Positions 5,379 through 58,519 of a stretch of DNA of 64,000 nucleotides are shown in pieces. How positions within the stretch are numbered: the stretch's first letter is position 1; each line of letters starts with the position of its first letter. Below the pieces are notes generated by a model. That model did not search any database. It saw only the letters and a list, made by a program, of their open reading frames with translations, and was not told the origin of the DNA. Both the position numbers and the translations under genes were made by a program. Source of the stretch: a virus; IMG/VR virus record IMGVR_UViG_3300005529_000024, positions 64,001 through 128,000 of that record. The stretch is one strand, 5' to 3'.

Positions 5379-5828
5379 ATGGCAATTCGATGCCTATCTG
5401 TACAATTAGCACAGCAAACTTTTCAGTTTACAAAACAATTGGGCACACCTCCCTTTATTTATAATGGGCCTGGTTTTCCTATCACAAATAATCCGCAAGG
5501 CTTCCTTCAGTTTAAAACAGATGTAGCTTTGGTTGTCGATAGTATCACACAGATTTTGGGTACGCGAAAAGGTGAACGTTTGCGTGTTCCTACTTTCGGT
5601 TCTGTTTTAAGTCAGCTTCAGTTTGAACCTGATGATCAGGTACTCGCTGATTTAGCTGCATCCAATATAGCTGACGCGCTGCATCAATGGGAACCAAGAC
5701 TTCGTTTGCAGCAAGTAACTGCTACTGTAGTACCTGGAGAGATGCCTACATTACAGATTGTTATTTCCGGTACTCTAACGAAGCTCGCATTACCAGTTAC
5801 TCTTAGATATGAGATGAATATATCCTAG
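5379..5828 (+). CDS. Baseplate wedge / sheath initiator (gp25 / gpW family)
   Basis: SITQILGTRKGERLRVPTFGS...FEP...WEPRL signature. Confidence 0.9.
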   Translation: MAIRCLSVQLAQQTFQFTKQLGTPPFIYNGPGFPITNNPQGFLQFKTDVALVVDSITQILGTRKGERLRVPTFGSVLSQLQFEPDDQVLADLAASNIADALHQWEPRLRLQQVTATVVPGEMPTLQIVISGTLTKLALPVTLRYEMNIS

Positions 5829-5837
5829 GATTTAATA

Positions 5838-7652
5838 ATGGCTATCAACGATAAATTACTTTACACCAGCACAGATTTTTTGACTGCTAGAGCTAACATG
5901 ATCCAGATTGCTCAAGCAAACTTTCCACAATGGAATGATTTCTTTGAGAGCAATAATGGAGTTATGCTTATTGAGTTATTCGCTCACGTTCTAGATCTGT
6001 TGGCATTCTATCAGAATAGGCAGGCAAATGAAGCTTTCATTGATCGTGCTCAGATCCGGGAAAATATAGTCTCTTTAGCGGCAAACATCGGTTATCAGCT
6101 TTCTACTGCAACAGCCGCTATTGCTCTGGTTAATTTTACGCTAAACACTCCATCTCCTAATCCGATTGTTATACCTGGTAACAACCCGCTTACCAGAACC
6201 AGGATTCAAACAGCGAATGGTCTTGTATTTGAAGTTCTTGCAGATGCTACTATACCAGTTGGTAGCACGAGTATAAGTAATATACTCGTAAAACAGGTTG
6301 AGACAAACGATTTTGCTACTACGAGTGATGGATCTCCCAGACAGGCATTTACTCTACCTATCTCTCCATTTGTGAACGATGGTAGCGTAATAGTGTTGGT
6401 CAATAATGTGCCCTGGAGCCAAGTATCAAACTTTTTAAACAGCGCAAACACAAGCACTAATTTTACAGTTGAGATTGATAGTTTCAATCGCGGTATTATT
6501 GTATTCGGTGATGGTGTTAACGGATCTATACCTCCTACTGGTGCAACAATCGAAGTACAGTATCCTGTTGGCGGTGGTTCTGCTGGTAACGTCGCGCCAA
6601 ACACTATTACCCAGATTCAACAAACTATCACAGACACTCTAGGTAATCCAGTAAACATTCTTGTCACAAACCCTCTTCCTGCTGTCGGTGGTACTGATGA
6701 AGAGGATATAAATACAGCGAGGGTAAATGCTCCTGCATCTATTCGTGCGTTGTCAAGAAGCGTGACAAAGGATGACTTTAAGCTTAACTCGTTACATGTT
6801 TCTGATGTCGCAAGGGTGAATGTTCTATCCTTGGATGATATCACAGTTCAGTATAACATAGCTTTAGGAAATGGTGCTACAGTAACATTCTCCGGAACAT
6901 TACCTAATGCACCTATTCGAATTGGTACATTAACCATAGTCGCAGGGACCATATTTGCTGTAGACGCAAATGGTGATGGAATCTTCGATTCTACTACAGG
7001 TTTAATCGGTGGTACTATTAACTATAGTACCGGAGCATTTTCGATTACATATCTTGCTCCTCCGGTTACTGGTCAGCCTATCATTGCTGAATATGTAAAG
7101 CTTGTGACACCATTCATTCCAGAAGATACAGTGTTTCTTTATGTAGTGCCGATTGGAGGAGGTGAAGCTCCACAGTCTCTTCTTAATTCTGTATACAATG
7201 AAGTCACGAACGTATTTCCAAATACGATTACGCAAAGAATTATCGTTGCTACAGCGATATATAAATCTATAGATTTGGTAGGTCGTATTCATATTAGATC
7301 CGGGTTTGATTTATCGACTGTTCGCACTAATGTTGTCAATGCTCTTAACACATTCTTTAACCCGACAACATTAGACTCTTCTGGTAATTTTGTTCGTAAT
7401 TTCGGAGAGACTCTTTACCCTTCTGAGCTTATCGCTACGATTCAAGATGCTGGTGGTGTTTTAACTGTCGCATTGACTCAGATAGCTGGAGTATCCGTAA
7501 GTAGCCTAGATACACCCATTCAGTTAGATATAGATCAACTACCTATGCTTGGTAATCTTAATATAACATTCATTGATACAGCGGGTAATACTCTTGCCGT
7601 TATCGAGCCAGCTTTCAATTATGAAGCTGGTCGAGGTGGTTCTTTCGTATAA
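5838..7652 (+). CDS. Baseplate wedge protein (gp6 / Baseplate J-like)
   Basis: YTSTDF...WNDFFESNNGVMLIELFA...ANEAF, FGDGVNGSIPP, GGTDEED...RSVTKDDF motifs. Confidence 0.9.
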   Translation: MAINDKLLYTSTDFLTARANMIQIAQANFPQWNDFFESNNGVMLIELFAHVLDLLAFYQNRQANEAFIDRAQIRENIVSLAANIGYQLSTATAAIALVNFTLNTPSPNPIVIPGNNPLTRTRIQTANGLVFEVLADATIPVGSTSISNILVKQVETNDFATTSDGSPRQAFTLPISPFVNDGSVIVLVNNVPWSQVSNFLNSANTSTNFTVEIDSFNRGIIVFGDGVNGSIPPTGATIEVQYPVGGGSAGNVAPNTITQIQQTITDTLGNPVNILVTNPLPAVGGTDEEDINTARVNAPASIRALSRSVTKDDFKLNSLHVSDVARVNVLSLDDITVQYNIALGNGATVTFSGTLPNAPIRIGTLTIVAGTIFAVDANGDGIFDSTTGLIGGTINYSTGAFSITYLAPPVTGQPIIAEYVKLVTPFIPEDTVFLYVVPIGGGEAPQSLLNSVYNEVTNVFPNTITQRIIVATAIYKSIDLVGRIHIRSGFDLSTVRTNVVNALNTFFNPTTLDSSGNFVRNFGETLYPSELIATIQDAGGVLTVALTQIAGVSVSSLDTPIQLDIDQLPMLGNLNITFIDTAGNTLAVIEPAFNYEAGRGGSFV

Positions 7653-7663
7653 GGAATTAATAA

Positions 7664-8479
7664 ATGGCTTTTGATTCGGTTGTAAACTTTGGGAAAGTAA
7701 CTGTTTCTATTGGTTACGATTCTTCTGCAATTTCTATCGTCTTGAACTCAGGGGATGGTGCTAAACTTCCGTCTACTACTCCATATAACATTATTTGGTG
7801 GAACTCTACTGACTATGTAGATCCTACAGATGATCCTAACGTTGAGATTGTCCGTGTTACTGCTAGATCAACCGATACATTGACTGTTACAAGAGCACAG
7901 GAAGGTACAAGCGCCTCTAATAAGAACACAGCAGGTAAGACATATAAAATGATCTTAGCTCTTACTGCTAAGATGATAACAGATATAGATGCAGGCAAAG
8001 TATCGAGTGTAGTAGCTGGCACAAACATAACTGTTGATAGTACTGATCCTAAGAATCCTATTGTTAAAGGCTTATTCTTGCCGGGAGCAAGAGTCTTCAA
8101 TAGCGTTGATCAGTCTGTCGCCAATACAACTATCGTCGCATTCGATAGTGAGCGTTGGGATACAGACAATATTCATGATAACGTCACCAACAACTCTAGG
8201 CTGACATGTAATACACCAGGTAAGTATCTGATTACATTCCATGGTAGGTTAACAGGTGCAGCATCTTCAATGGCTTTTCAGATATATTTAAATGGTGCTA
8301 CAATTATAGCTTATTCTACTTCTCTCAACGCATCTTCTGGCGATACAATGACTATCTCTACAATATATGATCTCGCAGCAAATGACTATGTACAGATTAG
8401 AGTAGTAGGAAATGCTACAGTGACATTATCACATGCTGCTAACTATTCAGCGGAATTCATGATGCAGAGAATTGGTTAA
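7664..8479 (+). CDS. Receptor-binding / fibre-tip protein 1 (shared N-terminal domain plus C1q/TNF-like head)
   Basis: N-terminal EIVRVTARSTDTLTVTRAQEGT domain; C-terminal FDSERWDTDNIHD...SRLTCNTPGKYLI...LAANDYVQI C1q-like pattern. Confidence 0.7.
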   Translation: MAFDSVVNFGKVTVSIGYDSSAISIVLNSGDGAKLPSTTPYNIIWWNSTDYVDPTDDPNVEIVRVTARSTDTLTVTRAQEGTSASNKNTAGKTYKMILALTAKMITDIDAGKVSSVVAGTNITVDSTDPKNPIVKGLFLPGARVFNSVDQSVANTTIVAFDSERWDTDNIHDNVTNNSRLTCNTPGKYLITFHGRLTGAASSMAFQIYLNGATIIAYSTSLNASSGDTMTISTIYDLAANDYVQIRVVGNATVTLSHAANYSAEFMMQRIG

Positions 8480-8553
8480 AAATAGATTTCTAATTTTTCT
8501 TCAGCATCAAAGTTTCTGGTATGTTACGTTAATAATTTTTTGATTGGTCTACT

Positions 8554-9369
8554 ATGTTAGCAACTTATGGTTCAGCCGAACTAGGCAATCCATTACCTGG
8601 AATGGGTCAAATATTAGTGACCCAGACAAGCTCATTTAATGACGAATTCTTTAAACAATTAACAAACTCTGGATCATTTTATTATGAATTCTTAAAGCAG
8701 TTAATAAACAATAGCTCTTTTAATGATGAGTCTCATGGAGTAATAATTAGGTCCCCAATTTTTGACTACGAGTATACTCGTTTAATTCCCAATAGTAGAC
8801 TATTCAATGATGAATATAATATTAAAATAATCTTGGTATCTACATTCAATGATGAAGCACATGGCGTAATTACTTCATCGAGGATATTAGATCATGAGTT
8901 TCTGATCAAAAGAGTTATCAATTTTAATCTGATTCGTGAGAATCTAATATCTTTAAGTAATTCTAGAACTTTTGTTTATGAATTGTTACAGCGTATATTT
9001 CAGCGGGAAACTTCTACCTATGATGTCTCTAAGCTTGTTGCTGGCTTATCACAAGATGCATATGAGCATTTAAGGGCCGTACCCACTAATCGGATTTTTA
9101 ATTATTCGTTTTCAAAGCAGATAACAAAAGATATAGTATCTAATAACGAGCATACGATTATGGTTTTAAGTGGTAGCAGAGCTTTTTACTATGCATACTT
9201 TGGATCAATATCACAGAGTAAAGTTTTCGATTACGAGTTTCAGTCTTATCTTTCAAAGAGCAGAATATTCGATTATGAGTTGGGTGGATTTCTCATATCA
9301 AATAATAGGACACTGAACAATGAATCTAATATACAATTGGTCATTAAACTACCAAAATTTACAAAATAG
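8554..9369 (+). CDS. Short 14-aa-repeat scaffold protein (about 17 units)
   Basis: Tandem units such as SSFNDEFFKQLT, GSFYYEFLKQLI, RIFDYELG; same repeat as 18279..20765. Confidence 0.75.
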   Translation: MLATYGSAELGNPLPGMGQILVTQTSSFNDEFFKQLTNSGSFYYEFLKQLINNSSFNDESHGVIIRSPIFDYEYTRLIPNSRLFNDEYNIKIILVSTFNDEAHGVITSSRILDHEFLIKRVINFNLIRENLISLSNSRTFVYELLQRIFQRETSTYDVSKLVAGLSQDAYEHLRAVPTNRIFNYSFSKQITKDIVSNNEHTIMVLSGSRAFYYAYFGSISQSKVFDYEFQSYLSKSRIFDYELGGFLISNNRTLNNESNIQLVIKLPKFTK

Positions 9370-9382
9370 TTGGGAATATTAA

Positions 9383-9427
9383 ATGCCTATAGTTTCTCAG
9401 ATACTAGAATTTCCGGTGGAGTGTTAA
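9383..9427 (+). CDS. 14-codon micro-ORF MPIVSQILEFPVEC (one repeat unit)
   Basis: ATG 9383, TAA 9425-9427 abutting the ATG at 9428; aligns position-for-position with MPSVSQLSGFNSEF (N-terminus of 12172). Confidence 0.45.
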   Translation: MPIVSQILEFPVEC

Positions 9428-11128
9428 ATGTATATTGCCGTAGGTTTTCCCGGATCAATCTATACAAGTAATGATGCTTCTTCTTGGACTGCACAAACTA
9501 GTGGTGTTAGTGTATCTCTTTCTAGGGTAGCGTTTGGGGCTGGATTAATCGTAGTAGTAGGTGACGTAGGCACGATTATAACATCGTCAGATGGAGGAGT
9601 AACTTGGACACCACGAACAAGTGGAACATCTGAATTCTTAAATGATGTTACTTGGACTGGATCAGTATTTATAGCAGTTGGGAATAATGGTACTGCCATT
9701 TATTCGCCTGATGGTATTACGTGGTCTGCTTTACCAATTGTTACTTCCAATAACCTTAATGGCGTTATATATGGCGCTGGAACTTATGTAATTGTAGGTC
9801 GTGTAAATAATATCACGGCTGCAATCTATACAAGCCCTGATTTAGTTACCTGGACATTTTCTGATGGCGGTATCGGAAGAGATTTAACTGCGATTACATA
9901 TGATGCAGGTTTAGGTCTGTTTGTTGTTTGTGGTAGGCTTGGTAAAATTGCTACATCTCCTGATGCCACTACATGGACAGTCAGAACTAGTGGGACATCA
10001 AATACTCTTTATGCTGCAACATCAGATGGTTCTGGTAATCTTGTAGTCGCTGGTGATGTTGGTACACTCTTAACGAGTTCAAATGGTACATCCTGGACAA
10101 CTCGTACTAGCTTAGCTCCAGATGTTATTCTGGGATTAGGGTATGGTAATGGCATATTCCTTGAGGCTGGTACTGTCAATTTTATCGGGACATCATCAGA
10201 TGGAGGAGCAACATGGACTGATCATTCCCAACCAGGTACTGATTTTGGTGGTGTAGCTTATGGTACAACAACAGTTACTGTTACTTCTCAGAGTATATTT
10301 GATTATGAGTTTTTAAGAACAGAGTCAACTAACTTTGAGTTTAAATCGTTTCCATCTCAGGATTCTACATTTGATTATGAATTTAATGCTGAGTTTGTTA
10401 ATTATCTTTCGTCATTTAACTATGAATATGGCGTAATCCTAGCTCAACAGAGAAATATAAATTACGAGTCTTACCAGAATATTGAATATACGTTTACTAT
10501 TCTGTATGAGACTGAGCTTTGTGTTCCAACAGTACCATCTGATTTTCTGTTCCAGCTTTTACCTGAGTTGTACAAAATAGTAGACGCGAGCCAAGGGCAG
10601 AATGTCTTATATACACTTCTTGTAAGTGTAATGGGATCATTTTTTGAAGATGCGATAAACAGTATCGAGAGCTTTGCAACAATCTTTAATTTCGAAAAAT
10701 GTGATCCTCGATATTTGGATCATCTTTTGTACCAGTTAGGAAACCCATTTGATATCTCTGGATTTTCTGATAATGATAAACGAAAGATTATCTCTTTGCT
10801 TGTACAAATCTACAAGCAAAAGGGAACAAAGCAAGGAATGATTAACGCTACCCGCGTGCTTACAAACCTTGATGTAGATATTAAAGAGGATTTGAAAGAG
10901 TATTATTGGAATATTGGAATTTCCTCTCTAGATCAACCTGCTAATCTATTTCCTGTTACATTTAATCGTGTCACAGTATTTAGACGTGCTACGATGAATT
11001 ACGAATATGGCCCTGGTATAAGCAGAGGTGCAATTGTTAACTATGAGGCTGACAGATTGACATCTGGATTCTCTGAAGAAACATTCGGTGATATGGTCTT
11101 TGCCAATGGTGGATTCGGCGGGTTATAA
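9428..11128 (+). CDS. Beta-propeller plus 14-aa repeats plus N-terminal part of a P2 gpI-like baseplate wedge domain
   Basis: S-x-D-G-x-T-W (BNR-like) repeats; FDYEF/FNYEY units; LPELYK...YLDHLLYQLG...KRKII...IYKQKGTKQG gpI-like pattern. Confidence 0.75.
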   Translation: MYIAVGFPGSIYTSNDASSWTAQTSGVSVSLSRVAFGAGLIVVVGDVGTIITSSDGGVTWTPRTSGTSEFLNDVTWTGSVFIAVGNNGTAIYSPDGITWSALPIVTSNNLNGVIYGAGTYVIVGRVNNITAAIYTSPDLVTWTFSDGGIGRDLTAITYDAGLGLFVVCGRLGKIATSPDATTWTVRTSGTSNTLYAATSDGSGNLVVAGDVGTLLTSSNGTSWTTRTSLAPDVILGLGYGNGIFLEAGTVNFIGTSSDGGATWTDHSQPGTDFGGVAYGTTTVTVTSQSIFDYEFLRTESTNFEFKSFPSQDSTFDYEFNAEFVNYLSSFNYEYGVILAQQRNINYESYQNIEYTFTILYETELCVPTVPSDFLFQLLPELYKIVDASQGQNVLYTLLVSVMGSFFEDAINSIESFATIFNFEKCDPRYLDHLLYQLGNPFDISGFSDNDKRKIISLLVQIYKQKGTKQGMINATRVLTNLDVDIKEDLKEYYWNIGISSLDQPANLFPVTFNRVTVFRRATMNYEYGPGISRGAIVNYEADRLTSGFSEETFGDMVFANGGFGGL

Positions 11129-11140
11129 AAGGAGTTTTAA

Positions 11141-12172
11141 ATGTCTTTAGATCCAATTGTAAATTTCGGTGTAGTGACTACTGCTAATCTATATAACTCA
11201 GCAGCTACATCTATAGTCTTAGATGCTGGACAAGGTGCTAAGCTTCCAGCAGTAGATTCTGATAATCCAAATCCTATACCCGGATATGACCTTATTTGGT
11301 GGGATGGATTAACCTATTCTGCTCCTTCTGATGATCCTAATGTTGAGATCGTAAGAGTTACTGCTAAAGTTGGTGATACCCTTACGATTGCTCGCGCACA
11401 ACAGGGAACAGTAGCATCTAATAAAAACTCAGCGGGTAAGATCTATAAACTAGCACTTGGCCCCACGGCTAAGATGATGAGCGATATAAACAAATATATC
11501 GACTCGTTTGAGGATTGGTATACCGTTACTTGGGATTTTAATGGCGATACAACCAGCATGGATGCTAATGGTCTTCGTTTTTCTGCTGGTGGTTCTTATA
11601 CTATTACTGGTACCGGCATCAACGGGGAAATGACTATAGGTACGGATGCTAGTAGCCTTAGAGAGTGGGATATATACTCTAGGATTGTTGGCTATCCTGG
11701 TCCTGATCCCTATCCTTCTGTATTGGCATTTGGCTCTTCGCCTCATTATTGCAAGATGAGGATGACATCTGGTGATTCTACAAATACAAATAAAGTAATC
11801 GTGTTTGGGTTTTGTGGTTATCCCTATAATCTTAATCAGATGACTAATTTTACCCCTGGTGGATCTGCTAACGGTTGTTTCTTTAGGGTTAATGCTGCTG
11901 GTTCTGCTGCAAATATTTTTGCTGTTAATAAGAACGGTGTATCTGAGACTACATTTGATACTGGTATTCTAGACTCATCCTCTTATCATGTGTTTGAGAT
12001 TATAGCTACTTCATCTCAGGTGTTGTACTATATCGATGGATCATTGAGAACAACGCTCAGTACGAATATACCGACTGCTGCACAAGCTTTCCATATCGGG
12101 ATGCAGACAACCGATGCGGTAGGAAAGCTAGCTACGATTGATTGGATAAAATATACTAGACCGAGGACATAA
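11141..12172 (+). CDS. Receptor-binding / fibre-tip protein 2 (shared N-terminal domain plus lectin/ConA-like head)
   Basis: N-terminal ~120 aa paralogous to 7664; C-terminal YHVFEI...VLYYIDG...IDWIKY beta-sandwich pattern. Confidence 0.7.
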   Translation: MSLDPIVNFGVVTTANLYNSAATSIVLDAGQGAKLPAVDSDNPNPIPGYDLIWWDGLTYSAPSDDPNVEIVRVTAKVGDTLTIARAQQGTVASNKNSAGKIYKLALGPTAKMMSDINKYIDSFEDWYTVTWDFNGDTTSMDANGLRFSAGGSYTITGTGINGEMTIGTDASSLREWDIYSRIVGYPGPDPYPSVLAFGSSPHYCKMRMTSGDSTNTNKVIVFGFCGYPYNLNQMTNFTPGGSANGCFFRVNAAGSAANIFAVNKNGVSETTFDTGILDSSSYHVFEIIATSSQVLYYIDGSLRTTLSTNIPTAAQAFHIGMQTTDAVGKLATIDWIKYTRPRT

Positions 12173-12477
12173 TGCCTTCTGTATCGCAATTATCAGGATT
12201 CAACAGTGAGTTTAGACTTACTTCTCCGCTACCTCCAGCAATTGGTGTGGGTGGTAGTGCGTTATGGGAATATAACGCTAAACGTGTGATTTATTCGTTT
12301 ACCGTTGTTTTGCCTGTAGTTGTTGATTCTATAACATTAGAGAAGATTAAAGCAGTAATCGACTTTATGAAGCCTGCACATACGCATTATCGCATTGTAC
12401 AGCCGAATGAGGTTGGCGCACTAGATCATTGGCTTCTTGATATAAGTAGTTTAGATATCAATACACTATTGCATTAA
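12172..12477 (+). CDS. C-terminal part of a gpI-like baseplate wedge protein, encoded as a separate gene
   Basis: YSFTVVLP...IKAVIDFMKPAHTHY is the typical gpI C-terminal KPAHT motif. Confidence 0.7.
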   Translation: MPSVSQLSGFNSEFRLTSPLPPAIGVGGSALWEYNAKRVIYSFTVVLPVVVDSITLEKIKAVIDFMKPAHTHYRIVQPNEVGALDHWLLDISSLDINTLLH

Positions 12478-15819: not shown

Positions 15820-16269
15820 ATGATAGTAGAGAAGCGCGGAGATATTTTTGATGTGGAGGTTGACGCATTAGTTAATCCTGTTAATTGCGTCGGTGTGATG
15901 GGTAAGGGATTAGCTTTAGAATTCAAAAAGCGATTTCCAGGAAATTACCAATCTTACAAAGCAGCATGTTCTTCTGGATATTTAAAGCCCGGTGACATGC
16001 ATATAGCTATTACAGATTGTCCTTATCCAAAGTACATAATAAATTTTCCAACAAAAGATGACTGGCGTAATCCATCAAAGCTTGAGTATATACAGACTGG
16101 ATTGACTTCTCTGATCGATTGTATAGGAAGGTTGGATATTAGATCAATCTCGCTACCGGCGCTTGGTTGTGGTAATGGTAATCTTAGTTGGGATAGTGTT
16201 CGTCCTTTATTATATAACGCTTTCTCGCAACTATCTAATGTTAATGTATACATCTACACCCCATTATAA
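15820..16269 (+). CDS. Macrodomain ADP-ribosylhydrolase, DarG-like
   Basis: VNPVNCVGVMGKGLALEFKKRFP, IINFPTKDDWR, PALGCGNGNLSW motifs. Confidence 0.85.
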   Translation: MIVEKRGDIFDVEVDALVNPVNCVGVMGKGLALEFKKRFPGNYQSYKAACSSGYLKPGDMHIAITDCPYPKYIINFPTKDDWRNPSKLEYIQTGLTSLIDCIGRLDIRSISLPALGCGNGNLSWDSVRPLLYNAFSQLSNVNVYIYTPL

Positions 16270-16281
16270 AGGAAACATAAT

Positions 16282-16548
16282 ATGGATGAAGTAACTGTCA
16301 AATTGATTTATCAGTTAGGCGCTTGGGCTGTTATCGGCGCTGCTTTTATCGTACTGATAAAATGGCTTCTTGGGCATGTTTCTAAATTAGTTGATACTAA
16401 CCGTGAATCATCCCAACATTTCGCTGAAGTAGCTCAGGGGTTTAAGGCGACTGTTGATAATCATATGCGAGACTGTACGGAGACACAACAGAAATTAGTA
16501 TCCGCTATAGAAAATATGAGCAAGCCGAAATCTAATAGGAGAAGATAA
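16282..16548 (+). CDS. Putative holin
   Basis: One N-terminal TM segment, basic C-terminus, stop overlaps the endolysin start. Confidence 0.55.
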   Translation: MDEVTVKLIYQLGAWAVIGAAFIVLIKWLLGHVSKLVDTNRESSQHFAEVAQGFKATVDNHMRDCTETQQKLVSAIENMSKPKSNRRR

Positions 16549-16967
16549 TGATTTCGTTAAACGAGATCTTAAAGGGTGTGGATTTTGATTCACTACCTGA
16601 TGAACACAAAGCAAATCTAAATATTTTACTTCCAAGATTAAATCAAGTTAGAACAGCTTGGGGGCATCCGATGATCGTAGATTCCGGCTATCGGACCATG
16701 GCTGATCATCTTCGGATTTATGCAGCAAAAGGTATTACGGATCAATCAAAGATACCCATGAAATCAAAACATCTTTCAGGTGCTGCCGCTGATATCTCAG
16801 ACCCACATGATCTACTACAGGCTTGGGTTAAGGCTAATGAAGATTGGCTTGTCTCTACTGTTGGTTTATGGTGTGAGAGATTTGATTTCACAAAGAATTG
16901 GGTACATTTCCAATGTATTCCCTATGGTTCTTGGAAACCAGGTGGGAGTATATTTTTTATACCATAG
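16548..16967 (+). CDS. Endolysin, peptidase M15 family
   Basis: SGYR, SKHLSGAAAD and WVHF zinc-peptidase motifs. Confidence 0.85.
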   Translation: MISLNEILKGVDFDSLPDEHKANLNILLPRLNQVRTAWGHPMIVDSGYRTMADHLRIYAAKGITDQSKIPMKSKHLSGAAADISDPHDLLQAWVKANEDWLVSTVGLWCERFDFTKNWVHFQCIPYGSWKPGGSIFFIP

Positions 16968-17056: not shown

Positions 17057-17809
17057 ATGTCAATTACTGCCGCAGAACTTAAAACTTACGGTTCAGCTAA
17101 TATGCCTGAAGATGATACTTCTACCTCTGGTGGTGCTATCGACACGGCAACCAAAGTTGAATTTACCGACATCTCAGCACCAGATACAGTTAATCTTGTT
17201 TCTAGTGCAGCAGGCGATACCACACAGCTTGTGACTATCACTGGTCGTGATAATACCGGCGCTATCGTTAGTGGTAGTGCTACTCTTAATGGAACTACTC
17301 CTGTTACTGTTACTCCAGGTGGTGCTGGAACCTTTGAACGTATCCTCAAGATCGTCATGGGAGCAACAGCAGTAGGTACAGTTACTGCTACCAAAACAAC
17401 TGGTGGTGCAACAATCGCAACCCTCGAACCTGGAATCACTAAAGTTCGGCGTTTGTTCTATGATTCTTTCTCTACCGCTTCACCTACTACACGGTATGAG
17501 AAGATTTTCTGGAAGAACACTGACGGTTCGTTAACACTCACAAACGCAGTTATTCAGCTTTTCGCTGATCCTTCTTCTAAGCTGTTGCTTGGTCTTGCTA
17601 CAGCAAAGAACGATTCCGGATCTGTCGCTAACCGCTTGACTGCTCCAGGTGGGGTTACATTCGTTGGGGTTGGTGTAAACCAATCTGTTCCTGGAACTAC
17701 TCTCGAAGCTGGTGCTGTAATCGGGACTTGGATTGAGCTTTCGTTGCTTGCTAACGATAGTCCTTTGAAGTCTACCGGAACAACTCAGCTACAGGGTAAC
17801 AGCGTGTAA
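17057..17809 (+). CDS. Putative major fibre/filament subunit, paralog B
   Basis: Strong RBS (AAGGAG), own downstream terminator, Thr/Gly/Ala-rich beta protein; paralog of 15065. Confidence 0.6.
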   Translation: MSITAAELKTYGSANMPEDDTSTSGGAIDTATKVEFTDISAPDTVNLVSSAAGDTTQLVTITGRDNTGAIVSGSATLNGTTPVTVTPGGAGTFERILKIVMGATAVGTVTATKTTGGATIATLEPGITKVRRLFYDSFSTASPTTRYEKIFWKNTDGSLTLTNAVIQLFADPSSKLLLGLATAKNDSGSVANRLTAPGGVTFVGVGVNQSVPGTTLEAGAVIGTWIELSLLANDSPLKSTGTTQLQGNSV

Positions 17810-18278: not shown

Positions 18279-20765
18279 ATGTTCTCATCAATTGTATTTG
18301 GAGCATCTGGTTATGGCATAATTCCAAGTACAAGCGTGATCTTTTTAAGTGCCACACGCTCATTTAACGATGAATTCCTATTACAGCTTTCTAGAACTCG
18401 TTCGTTTAATTATGAGTTTCTTAAGCAATTAACTTCGAGTAAGGTTCATAACTATGAGTTTTTGAAGCAACTTGTAAGTGATCGTATCTTTGATTATGAG
18501 TATTTACTCCAATTAACGAGCGATAGATCCTTTTATTACGAGCTTCTTAAGCAATTAACTACTAGTAAGACGTTTAATGACGAATTCCTTAAACAGTTGA
18601 CGGCAAGTGGAATAGATAATTATGAGTTTCTTAAGCAATTAACAAATGATCGGATTTCTAATTACGAATTTTTAAAGCAGCTAACGACAAGCAAGATTTT
18701 TTATTACGAGTTTCTTTTACAGTCTACTGCTAGCAATATCCTCAGAGATGAATGGACGCTTCAGCTTAACAAATCCAAATCTTTTAATGACGAATGGACG
18801 AAGCTTATATATGATGACCGGGATGTTTTATATGAATTAACTCTTTTAATTAGCTCAGATAGAGCAACCAATAATGAAGCCGCTGGTGTCTCAACAAGCA
18901 ATAAGTCTTTTAGCGATGAGTGGTTACTCAGCATATCAGAAGACAGATCATTTTCAGATGAGTTCGGCATCCTTTTGTCTAATTCAGAGTCTTCTCGTTA
19001 TGAGAGTCTTGCTCAATTAACACAAGATCGTAATATCCTATATGAGTTATTAAACCTCGTAATTGATGATCGTATTTTTGATTACGAGATCAGCATACGC
19101 TCAGTATCTACTCAGCGTGATGTTGAGTATGAGTTTTTACAGCGTTTAACATCTAATAGATTATTCGACTATGAGTCTAGCGTATTCCTATCACAGGTTG
19201 AATTATCAAGTTATGAGTTTCTAAAGCAAATTGATGGTCTAGAAGTATTTAATAGCGAGTACAAAGGTTATTTCAATATATCAAGGTTATTTAACTATTC
19301 AACCTCTAGAGTATTAATACGGTCTAGATCTTTCAATGATGAATACAATGTTCTCCGGCTTCTTTCCAGACGTTTTAATGATGAGTATCTTGCCTCAATT
19401 ATTAATGGCGAGTTTCGTGGTATAGCTTGGGAACATCTTAAGCAACTCACTGTTGACTCGATATCACAATATTCTTTTGGAGCTAGCAGTTTATCGTTAA
19501 AGACATTTAATGATGAGGCTTATGGACTAATTACCTCAGACAGATTGGTTCGTTATGAGTTTCTAAAGAGATTCTTTACGAGATCATCCAGTAATCTTGA
19601 GTATAATATATTACTCAATTCATCTAAGCTATATAATGCTGAGTTTTTGCAGAGGCTTACTAATAGTCGATTGTTCAACGATGAAGCTCATGGAGTAATC
19701 CTAAGATCCAGGTCTTTAAACACAGAATGGTTAAGACTATTATCAAACAGCCGTTTATCTTCATATGAGTTCCTAAAGCAGTTTTCGAATGGCAGGAGTT
19801 TTAACCAGGAATATTCTAATAGGCTTGCGAAGAATCTGTCTAATCCCTATGAATATCTGAGGAAGCTTCGCTTAGCAAGATCATTTAGATATGAGTATTC
19901 TTCTCGTGTTCTTTATAACTCAATTAGCTCCTATGAGTATCTAGCTAGCATAATTGAGAAGAGGCTCTTCCTTGACGAATTTATAAGTAGTGATAAAAAG
20001 CTTGGCACGTTCTTTACTGAGTTTTACGGTCCAGCTATTAGCTCCAGGACATTCAATGATGAATATCTTATGTCTCTTTCACGTCAGAGAGCTATCGATT
20101 ATGAGCTAACAAGATCCATAATCGAGCGTAGGGTGTTTATTTACGAATCATTGCAGCGTATATCAAGATACGCCATTTCTACTGTTGAGGCTTTACGCAG
20201 GCTCAACGTTAATAGAACCGTGAATGATGAGATTCTATCCAGCGTTGTTAATGAGTCTATCTTTCGATATGAGCTACTATTAAGATTATTGAATAACAGA
20301 GTATTCAATGATGAGGCGTATGGATTTTTCTTCGAGAGATCCATAACCAATTATGAGAGTAAGAACACAGTACATAGCAATCGTATAAGTAATGTTGAAA
20401 GTCTTGCGTCAATCAATAACCGTGAGCAGATTGTATACGAAACGTTAGAACGTCTCTATGAGACATTAAAGCTTAACAATGAGCACATCCAGCGTTTGTA
20501 TTCAAGTAGTATTTCTCGATATGAATTTTCCGGATCTCTAACAGAAATCTCCCAGAACCTATATGAGATAATCCGGACTATTCTACAGCAATCTACTGTA
20601 CATGATGAAGGAAAGGGTATTATCACAAAGCAGAGAATCGCTAACTACGAAGAGGCTAAGACATTTCCTAGCTACGCTTTGGGTCTGAGTATATTCTCTG
20701 TGCCTGCTATCTCTATCAAGGTTTCTGCATCTGTGAAAGTAACAGATGAGGAGGTTAATCCATAA
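18279..20765 (+). CDS. Long 14-aa-repeat scaffold protein (roughly 55 units)
   Basis: Tandem units RTRSFNYEFLKQLT / SSKVHNYEFLKQLV / SDRIFDYEYLLQLT...; 42-bp DNA periodicity near the 5' end. Confidence 0.8.
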   Translation: MFSSIVFGASGYGIIPSTSVIFLSATRSFNDEFLLQLSRTRSFNYEFLKQLTSSKVHNYEFLKQLVSDRIFDYEYLLQLTSDRSFYYELLKQLTTSKTFNDEFLKQLTASGIDNYEFLKQLTNDRISNYEFLKQLTTSKIFYYEFLLQSTASNILRDEWTLQLNKSKSFNDEWTKLIYDDRDVLYELTLLISSDRATNNEAAGVSTSNKSFSDEWLLSISEDRSFSDEFGILLSNSESSRYESLAQLTQDRNILYELLNLVIDDRIFDYEISIRSVSTQRDVEYEFLQRLTSNRLFDYESSVFLSQVELSSYEFLKQIDGLEVFNSEYKGYFNISRLFNYSTSRVLIRSRSFNDEYNVLRLLSRRFNDEYLASIINGEFRGIAWEHLKQLTVDSISQYSFGASSLSLKTFNDEAYGLITSDRLVRYEFLKRFFTRSSSNLEYNILLNSSKLYNAEFLQRLTNSRLFNDEAHGVILRSRSLNTEWLRLLSNSRLSSYEFLKQFSNGRSFNQEYSNRLAKNLSNPYEYLRKLRLARSFRYEYSSRVLYNSISSYEYLASIIEKRLFLDEFISSDKKLGTFFTEFYGPAISSRTFNDEYLMSLSRQRAIDYELTRSIIERRVFIYESLQRISRYAISTVEALRRLNVNRTVNDEILSSVVNESIFRYELLLRLLNNRVFNDEAYGFFFERSITNYESKNTVHSNRISNVESLASINNREQIVYETLERLYETLKLNNEHIQRLYSSSISRYEFSGSLTEISQNLYEIIRTILQQSTVHDEGKGIITKQRIANYEEAKTFPSYALGLSIFSVPAISIKVSASVKVTDEEVNP

Positions 20766-21286
20766 TGGCTAATGTTTTACAGCAATCAACATTCGGGAAT
20801 GAGGCACGTGGCTTCTCATCCCAACAGAAGTCTGCCAATTATGAATTTGCTCCAATCCTTGGTGGTTATAGTCTTTCATTGATTGTTTTTTCTAAGGATG
20901 TTCTATCAATAGAACTTTTTTCAAACAGATTCGGAGGATACACAATGCTTCCCGCTCAGTATGATATGGGGGCTACAATTCCAATTTTAGCTTCCTTTTC
21001 TTTGACACCACCCTTTGGTGAGGCTATACCATCGGATATGGATCAAGCATTAATTACTATCGTTGATCCAAACGGTACTCTTGTTATCAATGCAGCTAGC
21101 ATGACACGAGTTCCGGATGTGGCCCCAACAGACATAAATCCGAGTGGCGTTAATAATGCGGGGAATTATTTTTACGATTATAACTCCGTGATAAATCCTG
21201 TGCTTGGTGTGTACCAAGTTAAGGTGCAGGGCATTAGGGCATTAACAACAGGCATAATAAAAGAATTTCTATTCCAGCTATCTTAG
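20765..21286 (+). CDS. Two repeat units plus an Ig-like / BppU-like adaptor domain; possible internal start at 20945
   Basis: N-terminal TFGNEA and ANYEF units; C-terminal ITIVDPNG...GNYFYDY...GVYQVKV beta-sandwich; GGAGG at 20933-20937. Confidence 0.55.
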   Translation: MANVLQQSTFGNEARGFSSQQKSANYEFAPILGGYSLSLIVFSKDVLSIELFSNRFGGYTMLPAQYDMGATIPILASFSLTPPFGEAIPSDMDQALITIVDPNGTLVINAASMTRVPDVAPTDINPSGVNNAGNYFYDYNSVINPVLGVYQVKVQGIRALTTGIIKEFLFQLS

Positions 21287-56917: not shown

Positions 56918-58519
56918 ATGAAAAATAAATTAACAAAGTCTCAGAAAAGAATTTTATCCATATACATAAAGCTTTCTAAAAAGAATGGCGTCTATCCATC
57001 CAGATCTGAACTTCTGCGCGAGGGTGTGAGCCGTGATCAAGTACGTTCTGCATTCGGGTCTTTGTCTCAATTAAAGAACGTGGCGTTTACTACATATCCG
57101 GATGTCTTTAAGGGCATTATCGATGAAACCTTGGTATCAGATGATGCGATCCAAAATTTAAAACAAGAAGTAAGGGGTTATAATAAATTTGTTATAACCA
57201 CAGCAATTGGTGGTGGTAAAGTTCATTCCAAGTTTCATTCGAGTCTGAAAAAGTATTGCGAGTTAAACAATGCAAAGCTCTTGATTCTGATGGCTGAAGA
57301 TCCGGCATCGATCAGGAAATTTAAGATTCCAAATGGTCTTGAAGAAGAGCAGTTTGTTTTCTCTGATATCAAATTAAATTCAAATATCTTCATCTCTACA
57401 ATTAAATTATCTGCTAAGCAAATCGATCCTATGACTGGATTGTCCAGGTTAGGAAAGCGCGAGGGATCGTTTATTTATGCATCTCCGAAGCAACGATTAG
57501 TCTTCGTCCCGATAGGCTCTACTCTTCCTCACGCGATCATGACTACAGGAGCTATCACTCTCCCTGATTATCAGACTGAGCATTACATGAGCGAGCGTAC
57601 AGCTTGGATTGCAAAACAAGACCATGTAATGGGCGCTGTAATTGTCGAGGTCGAGGATGAGGAGATCTACCACTTTAGACAGATTCAAGCAGAAAAGAAT
57701 GGATCTTTTATAGATCTTGGGAAACAATACACAGAGAATGGCGTTATTGATGTAAGACCATCTGCGTTCATTCTTGGTGATTGGCATTCTGGTGAAACCG
57801 ATCCAACAGCGAAAACTTCTTGGAAAGAAGTTGTTGATGCTGTAAAACCCAGAATCCTCGTTCTTCATGATGCTTTCAATGGTAAATCAATAAATCATCA
57901 TGAGAAGGGTCGTAAGATCAAGCGAGCGAAATTTTATCGTGATAATTTACTGTCGCTTAAAGATGAACTTAAAAAGTTTGCTGAAGATTTAAACGAACTG
58001 TCAACATGGGCTGATCAGGTAGTGATAGTTAAATCAAATCATGATGAGTTCTTAGAAGAGATTCTAGAAGATGGTCGGTATATAAACGATCCGATAAACT
58101 TCGAAATTTGTACGAAACTAGCTTTAGCTATGCTGAATGGTTCATCACCATTACGAATTGGTGCTGAGATATCAGGCTTGTCAGCGACTAATATAGTGTG
58201 GCTCAAAAGGGATGATGATTTTGAAATCGCTCGTATCCAGTTAGGGGCACATGGAGATAAGGGGCCAAATGGAGCGAGAGGGAGTATAAAGAATCTTGAG
58301 TCATCCTATGGTAATTGTGTAATTGGTCACTCACATTCTCCTGGTATTCTAAGAGGATGCTGGCAAGTTGGAACAAGTAGTCTTTTTAATTTGGGATATA
58401 ACGTTGGTCCGTCATCCTGGTTGCATACAAGCTGTCTGTTGTACCATACAGGAGCACGTCAGTTAATACATTCTATTGAAGGTAGATGGAGATCTAAAAA
58501 TGGAAATAAAGCTAGTTAA
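56918..58519 (+). CDS. T5 A1-like protein (metallophosphoesterase-fold nuclease)
   Basis: FVITTA, DPMTGL, MTTGAIT..DY, GAVIVE...FRQ, GDWH, SNHD, HGDKGPNGARG, GHSHSP. Confidence 0.75.
   Translation: MKNKLTKSQKRILSIYIKLSKKNGVYPSRSELLREGVSRDQVRSAFGSLSQLKNVAFTTYPDVFKGIIDETLVSDDAIQNLKQEVRGYNKFVITTAIGGGKVHSKFHSSLKKYCELNNAKLLILMAEDPASIRKFKIPNGLEEEQFVFSDIKLNSNIFISTIKLSAKQIDPMTGLSRLGKREGSFIYASPKQRLVFVPIGSTLPHAIMTTGAITLPDYQTEHYMSERTAWIAKQDHVMGAVIVEVEDEEIYHFRQIQAEKNGSFIDLGKQYTENGVIDVRPSAFILGDWHSGETDPTAKTSWKEVVDAVKPRILVLHDAFNGKSINHHEKGRKIKRAKFYRDNLLSLKDELKKFAEDLNELSTWADQVVIVKSNHDEFLEEILEDGRYINDPINFEICTKLALAMLNGSSPLRIGAEISGLSATNIVWLKRDDDFEIARIQLGAHGDKGPNGARGSIKNLESSYGNCVIGHSHSPGILRGCWQVGTSSLFNLGYNVGPSSWLHTSCLLYHTGARQLIHSIEGRWRSKNGNKAS

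Follow-up and report, generated by a model that had tools for sequence, protein, structure and literature searches.

A 14-codon open reading frame between two tail genes of a phage most likely arose as a side effect of the shuffling of tail genes; it is probably not a novel free peptide. Specifically, we favour, at somewhat better than even confidence, the reading that this micro-ORF, which starts at position 9383, is a relic of the 5′ end of an ancestral gpI-like gene, comprising its ribosome-binding region and first 14 codons. The window that was analysed is 64,000 nucleotides long and represents bases 64001–128000 of one 174,395-bp phage contig; coordinates below are those of the window unless stated otherwise. 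The region around the micro-ORF is a contractile-tail baseplate and fibre module.

Gene order at the locus and in a relative

Upstream of the micro-ORF lie a gp25-like gene (5379–5828), baseplate J (5838–7652, plus strand; Pfam Baseplate_J), a fibre gene with a C1q/BclA-type head (7664–8479) and the gene at 8554 (8554–9369, plus strand). The last of these encodes a 271-aa protein of about 17 units of a 14-aa repeat, ending F-T-K-TAG; J carries a single C-terminal unit, FNYEA (7614–7628). Between 8554 and 9428 is a gap of 58 nt in which the sole ATG is that at 9383. Reading the sequence confirmed that this ATG opens a frame of 14 codons that ends at TAA 9425–9427 and encodes MPIVSQILEFPVEC (9383–9427, plus strand), as the first-pass annotation had it; we read these as stranded gpI-like 5′ codons. 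Downstream are the 9428 gene, for a 566-aa protein (9428–11128), a second fibre gene (11141–12172) and the 12172 gene (12172–12477, plus strand), whose 101-aa product begins with the unit MPSVSQLSGFNSEF (12172–12213). Farther along, an 828-aa protein with about 58 units (18279–20765) is followed by a 173-aa protein (20765–21286, plus strand) with the N-terminal unit MANVLQQSTFGNEA (20765–20806).

Some features of the surroundings are recorded here for their own sake. The 8554 gene is preceded by a 74-nt gap (8480–8553) with no recognisable Shine-Dalgarno (SD) sequence (−2.2 kcal/mol), and an AlphaFold2 run without an alignment gave its product a pLDDT of 29.7, too low for use. Between the fibre genes and the gene at 17057 are a stand-alone Macro domain protein (15820–16269; Pfam E 3e-19) and a Peptidase_M15 endolysin-type protein (16548–16967).

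The only moderately diverged relative found is L002, a 3.5-kb contig recovered through its protein P0206 in a word search with baseplate J. Its genes run GPW_gp25, J, a gpI-like gene and a 77-aa gene, with the gpI-like gene downstream of gp25-like and J genes as expected; the window has the same order plus inserted genes. The J proteins of the two phages are 45% identical end to end, terminal unit included (FNYEA in the window, INYES in L002). The 215-aa gpI-like gene of L002 begins 23 nt after J, and neither a propeller, nor an 8554-like gene, nor intervening fibre genes are present in L002 at these positions. Residues 61–215 of its product align with residues 347–503 of the 9428 protein (44% identity, E 7e-36), and the 77-aa gene that follows is an orthologue of the body of 12172 (46% identity, E 4e-20).

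The L002 gpI-like protein starts with MPPVSNDFIVNKEY; a Gly-rich linker comes next, and then three further units and the gpI core. M1, P2, V4, S5 and E13 of this start recur in the micro-ORF, whose position 14 is one base away from Tyr or Phe. The micro-ORF thus has a gpI-type start (M-P-x-V-S ... E-[YF]) in the syntenic place, the likeness being modest against L002 alone. The upstream bases are also similar, GGGAATATT-AA-ATG in the window and GGTAATATTCAATATG in L002. Together, the synteny and the shared start place the micro-ORF, in frame, where the ancestral gpI-like gene should begin. They do not bear out a conserved, separate 14-codon ORF: the counterpart codons in L002 open an intact 215-aa gene.

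We interpret this to indicate the following history. The ancestral layout, kept in L002, would have been a gp25-like gene, J, a gpI-like gene and a small downstream gene, and the ancestral gpI-like protein would have opened with one unit (M-P-x-V-S ... E-[YF]), continuing through a Gly-rich linker and further units to the gpI core. Three blocks would have been added to this. A fibre gene and the repeat gene 8554 would have entered between J and the old start, a 7-blade BNR propeller would have been placed immediately after codon 14, and a second fibre gene would have come to separate the gpI core from the small downstream gene. Since the propeller part would bring the usual initiation module with it, the 566-aa protein would be made from 9428 and the old 14 codons left as a stub. 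We infer this order of events, and its direction (insertion here as opposed to loss in L002) from one comparison of sequences. Low-level translation of the stub may persist from its original weak SD, and the stub would no longer have a peptide role; the equivalent unit would now be on 12172, whose N-terminus appears to be the closest copy of the ancestral gpI start.

The first-pass annotation had offered, as one of its explanations, a scaffold gene fragmenting by nonsense changes. The idea of a broken gene comes near our preferred reading. The source of the stub, though, would be the gpI-like gene and not the repeat gene 8554, given the intact MPPVS...E-Y gene that follows J in L002, and the break looks less like a simple nonsense change than like a propeller module, with its SD-TAA-ATG start, placed behind codon 14.

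The first 30 residues of 12172 (12172–12260; the unit and then PPAIGVGGSA) are similar to the beginning of the L002 gpI-like protein (2617–2720 of that contig; the unit and then GAFGGGPFGGGPFG), and the L002 orthologue of 12172 is without this N-terminal unit extension. Because a better copy heads 12172 here, the stub may be redundant. We also asked whether 12172 could be a C-terminal part of gpI; it showed no significant BLASTP similarity to a contiguous gpI-like protein and had no Pfam match. In L002 (2617–3506) the gpI-like and small downstream genes are likewise separate, with an 8-nt spacer and in different frames, so any gpI 'split' predates insertion of the fibre gene at 11141.

Other relatives found through J (L003–L005) have an ordinary gpI without units, L003 having J and then Tail_P2_I. 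Searches with blastn and tblastn against phages returned no relatives, only propeller-only matches and a weak match to Bacillus phage BCD7; searches of viral, metagenome and genome contigs gave no further relatives, and a word search with the gpI half recovered only a near-identical strain. The relic reading has one informative relative behind it, L002.

The 9428 protein and its probable start

The 566-aa protein is a composite. Residues 1–286 (9428–10285, plus strand) form a 7-blade BNR/Ycf48-like beta-propeller with seven SxDxxxW[TS] blades, hundreds of homologues and weak Pfam BNR/PSII_BNR matches. Between the propeller and the gpI-like baseplate core (residues 347–503; 10466–10936, plus strand) is a stalk of about five repeat units, SIFDYEF, TNFEF, TFDYEF, SFNYEY and INYES (10286–10465, plus strand). 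A C-terminal extension with the units MNYEY and VNYEA and a Gly-rich end (10937–11128, plus strand) is absent from L002. Pfam PF09684 Tail_P2_I matches residues 416–494 at 21.6 bits against a cut-off of 20.6 (E 2.1e-4), spanning only profile positions 26–97 of 139; the L002 gpI-like orthologue scores only 12.1 bits on the same profile.

Where the propeller begins bears on the idea that the micro-ORF and 9428 are one gene, with TAA 9425 a sequencing error or read through and the protein starting MPIVSQ... with its unit on the propeller. The frame is shared with 9428, and the hydrophobic pattern I-x-x-F-x-V before YIAVG loosely fits the first strand of a blade. We nevertheless consider this very improbable. 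Propeller homology begins at residues 15–18 of the read-through translation, which is to say at the Met of 9428, in 62 of the 119 homologues, and the homologue alignments do not run into the stub. The propeller is, moreover, already closed by the C-terminal strand FGGVAY; as this supplies the strand and the alignments start at the Met, we rejected the stub as the missing first strand of blade 1. A second strain, about 99% identical, has a 9428 product with the same first residues, MYIAVG (P0001), and an 8554 product that is also 271 aa (P0123), and these matching boundaries argue weakly against sequencing error. Finally, the code is standard. Long plus-strand ORFs end in TAA (108), TGA (38) and TAG (37), so that all three stops are in normal use; with no terminator avoided genome-wide and TAA the commonest, stop-codon recoding or read-through was rejected.

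The second strain differs elsewhere in ways that concern the repeats and the fibre. P0001 is without exactly 28 aa, or two 14-aa units, at about residues 291–320 of the 9428 protein (10298–10384), which indicates that unit number varies between strains. The fibre P0127 (326 aa), corresponding to 11141–12172 of the window, has 17 aa missing in its head domain and is otherwise identical.

Sequence likeness and start modules of the micro-ORF

The pattern M-x-x-V-x-Q-x-x-x-F-x-x-E is indeed common to the starts of 9383, 12172 and 20765. The further claim that the micro-ORF encodes exactly one repeat unit does not survive scoring. On a position-specific matrix built from 49 units (x-x-S-R-x-F-N-[DY]-E-[FY]-L-x-Q), the micro-ORF scores −3.0 bits, a level that 1.75% of random six-frame 11-mers also reach; 12172 and 20765 have +8.9 and +7.3 bits at their N-termini, which puts both in the top 0.04–0.06%. 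The micro-ORF has F-P-V-E-C where the consensus is F-N-[DY]-E-[FY], three mismatches that fall precisely on the SD of 9428.

Its likeness to the paralogous N-termini is nonetheless above background. The whole genome, both strands counted, has 3662 stop-free 14-mers that begin with ATG. Of these, 9383 shares the top BLOSUM score against the N-terminus of 12172, its closest paralogue, and has the most identities (7). Against three reference N-termini together it comes first among non-reference 14-mers, narrowly (28 against 27 and 26). Against the L002 gpI N-terminus alone it ranks 86th (p about 0.02), and the 12172 N-terminus ranks 4th. Given that rank, what carries the relic case is position, together with the indirect connection via 12172. 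The V, S, Q and F shared with 12172 use different synonymous codons, which places the likeness at the protein level.

These ranks also frame the possibility that the micro-ORF is a chance ORF, an ATG and 14 open codons in an AT-rich 58-nt spacer whose resemblance to 12172 and L002 is coincidental. Such ORFs are not rare, as micro-ORFs of at least 8 codons occur in 11 of the 37 intergenic gaps of 30–150 nt, and both the small margin over the next-best 14-mers and the rank against L002 alone are what chance would allow. Yet it is the single ATG of its gap that reaches the tied top place against 12172 and the first place against the three references, and it stands exactly at the ancestral start expected from synteny. 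We hold coincidence to be unlikely.

The resemblance to 12172 is uneven, with 5 of 7 residues identical in the 5′ half and 2 of 7 in the 3′ half, and the 3′ half coincides with the SD and TAA of 9428. The 9428 start module (9415–9430, plus strand) consists of the SD GGTGGAG (9415–9421), a spacer, TAA (9425–9427) and ATG (9428–9430). It overlaps the micro-ORF codons P-V-E-C-stop, the P-V-E codons making up the SD, so that the 'anchor' Glu codon is inseparable from the ribosome-binding site of 9428. The poor 3′ half would fit remodelling into that ribosome-binding site.

The micro-ORF's own start module, GGGAATATTAA, directly 5′ of its ATG (9372–9382, plus strand), combines a weak SD with an in-frame TAA. 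It resembles those of 7664 and 18279 (GGAAT-N6-ATG), as well as the bases 5′ of the L002 gpI-like ATG (GGTAATATTCAAT). The SD/anti-SD duplex is −4.2 kcal/mol against a gene median of −5.9, weaker than in 65% of genes and equalled by 19% of random ATGs. The SD of 9428 is of median strength (−6.1 kcal/mol), and its module is identical to that of 11141 at 12 of 13 bases from GGAG to ATG. A free single-unit peptide occupying a docking groove, as had been proposed, gains no support from these features: the unit is poor, its 3′ half is the ribosome-binding site of 9428 and its own SD falls below the gene median.

What had been described as a chain of three ORFs is real as a matter of sequence, in that 9320, 9383 and 9428 lie in a common frame, each joined to the next by TAAATG. 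It is not a special feature. An in-frame stop stands directly before the ATG in 24 of 235 genes, mostly as TAAATG, and SD-spacer-TAAATG is a recurrent start module of this phage, found also at 7664, 11141 and 18279. The first member, 9320 (20 codons, MNLIYNWSLNYQNLQNSWEY; 9320–9382, plus strand, in the frame of 9428), is mostly an off-frame overlap (9320–9369) of the 3′ end of 8554; it has no support and is probably not a gene. As to the observation that 8554 stops where the next Glu is expected, the product does end F-T-K-TAG with the stop at the Glu position of F-x-x-E, but this is one codon off strict 14-residue periodicity counted from E257.

The junctions nevertheless suggest another role, in which translation of the stub matters and not its peptide. 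Ribosomes would stop at TAG 9369, restart 14 nt on at 9383, stop at TAA and restart at ATG 9428, which would couple 9428 output to 8554 output. The TAAATG overlap would suit such coupling, as would the closeness of ATG 9383 to the 8554 stop and the arrangement of all three on one strand with no promoter or terminator between 8554, 9383 and 9428. Counter to this, 9428 has its own SD, TAAATG is common without any upstream ORF, and the RNA at the site has no stable fold and none that sequesters the 9428 SD (z +0.74). We regard coupling as unlikely. There was also no Rfam match and no tandem DNA repeat at the micro-ORF site.

A different possibility is that the phage still produces the 14-aa peptide, which would take up in trans the place of the ancestral gpI N-terminal unit in the baseplate, the stop-start junction allowing a small docking unit and a bulky propeller to coexist. 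Arguing for such a split protein, the micro-ORF has kept its ATG and a start module of the 7664 and 18279 kind, preserves M-P-x-V-S-Q despite synonymous codon differences from 12172 and is in frame with 9428. Terminal units also seem constrained elsewhere, the C-terminal unit of J being kept at 45% overall identity. The off-consensus F-P-V-E-C and negative unit score count against it, as do the weak SD and the much better N-terminal unit on 12172, and no relative found keeps a separate 14-codon ORF. We judge it improbable that such a peptide is made and used, docking for instance next to the conserved C-terminal units that both J copies carry. Were it so, the virion would have a component of only 14 residues made from its own ORF, a working gene fission, and the phage could have added a bulky propeller to gpI while keeping the ancestral contact. 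The relic reading remains our preference, although the intact ATG, the gene-like start module and the frame of 9428 would also fit a product still in use. For annotation, 9320 and 9383 should not be called genes without expression data.

The repeat system and known phage systems

The more interesting lead is the repeat-unit system rather than the micro-ORF. A HMMER search with the 828-aa protein gave 76 matches. Tail modules of other phages account for some of them with clear YEFL-type arrays of 14 aa (such as P0170 in L001), and these arrays are covered by no Pfam family. Single terminal units occur on J of both phages, the gpI-like protein, 12172, 20765 and the protein encoded just before the sheath gene. 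Since L002 also has units, the single terminal ones on J, gpI and the small downstream protein predate this phage.

Several observations extend this picture. The protein just upstream of the sheath gene (57720–58513 of the genome, 6281 to 5487 bases before the window) ends in three units, IPTYEF, VADYEN and VLQQSTFNSEFHQ-stop, the last closely resembling the N-terminus of 20765. The 250-aa protein at 17057–17809 has a 46%-identical homologue (E 5e-61) in the siphovirus-type tail module of L001 (2310–3053), two genes before P0170 (379 aa, with an N-terminal NQYEFLQG 14-aa repeat array); the family and the repeat thus occur together in tails that are unrelated. The exact 828-aa product (18279–20765) is absent from a 15-billion-protein collection in which its neighbours are present, which may reflect different gene calling or repeat-array differences between strains.

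Considering the locus as a whole, it offers a concrete, datable example of baseplate gene rebuilding, with a receptor-type propeller and two fibre cassettes placed around a conserved J–gpI core. The core compares with wedge proteins of the P2 gpI, Mu gp48 and T4 gp7 type (Tail_P2_I), with which it shares the order gp25-like, J, I and a Pfam match above the cut-off. Unlike these, the gene here encodes a propeller at its N-terminus as well as flanking 14-aa units, is preceded by a stranded stub of 14 codons and is accompanied by 12172, a small separate ORF downstream. A similar BNR propeller is found on the 'baseplate wedge initiator' proteins of T4-like cyanophages (S-CAM9, 37% identity over residues 1–129), which provide a precedent for a propeller on a gpI-class protein.

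For the stub itself there are two points of reference. Upstream ORFs with termination-reinitiation coupling use UAAUG-type overlaps, and the stop of a short ORF overlaps the start of the next gene here as well; unlike in those systems, 9428 has an SD of its own and no sequestering structure, and the overlap is common in this phage regardless of upstream ORFs. Gene-start remnants beside exchanged tail modules, on the other hand, are an ordinary product of phage mosaicism. The likeness to these lies in a short ORF that has the same place as the 5′ end of an orthologue of the neighbouring gene and resembles it in sequence, beside blocks absent from the relative. It differs in being in frame and abutting the new start by TAAATG, and in also corresponding to one copy of a repeat motif used on many virion proteins of the phage. 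On this comparison, the micro-ORF would be a clean example of a gene-start remnant, with an unusual in-frame TAAATG abutment.
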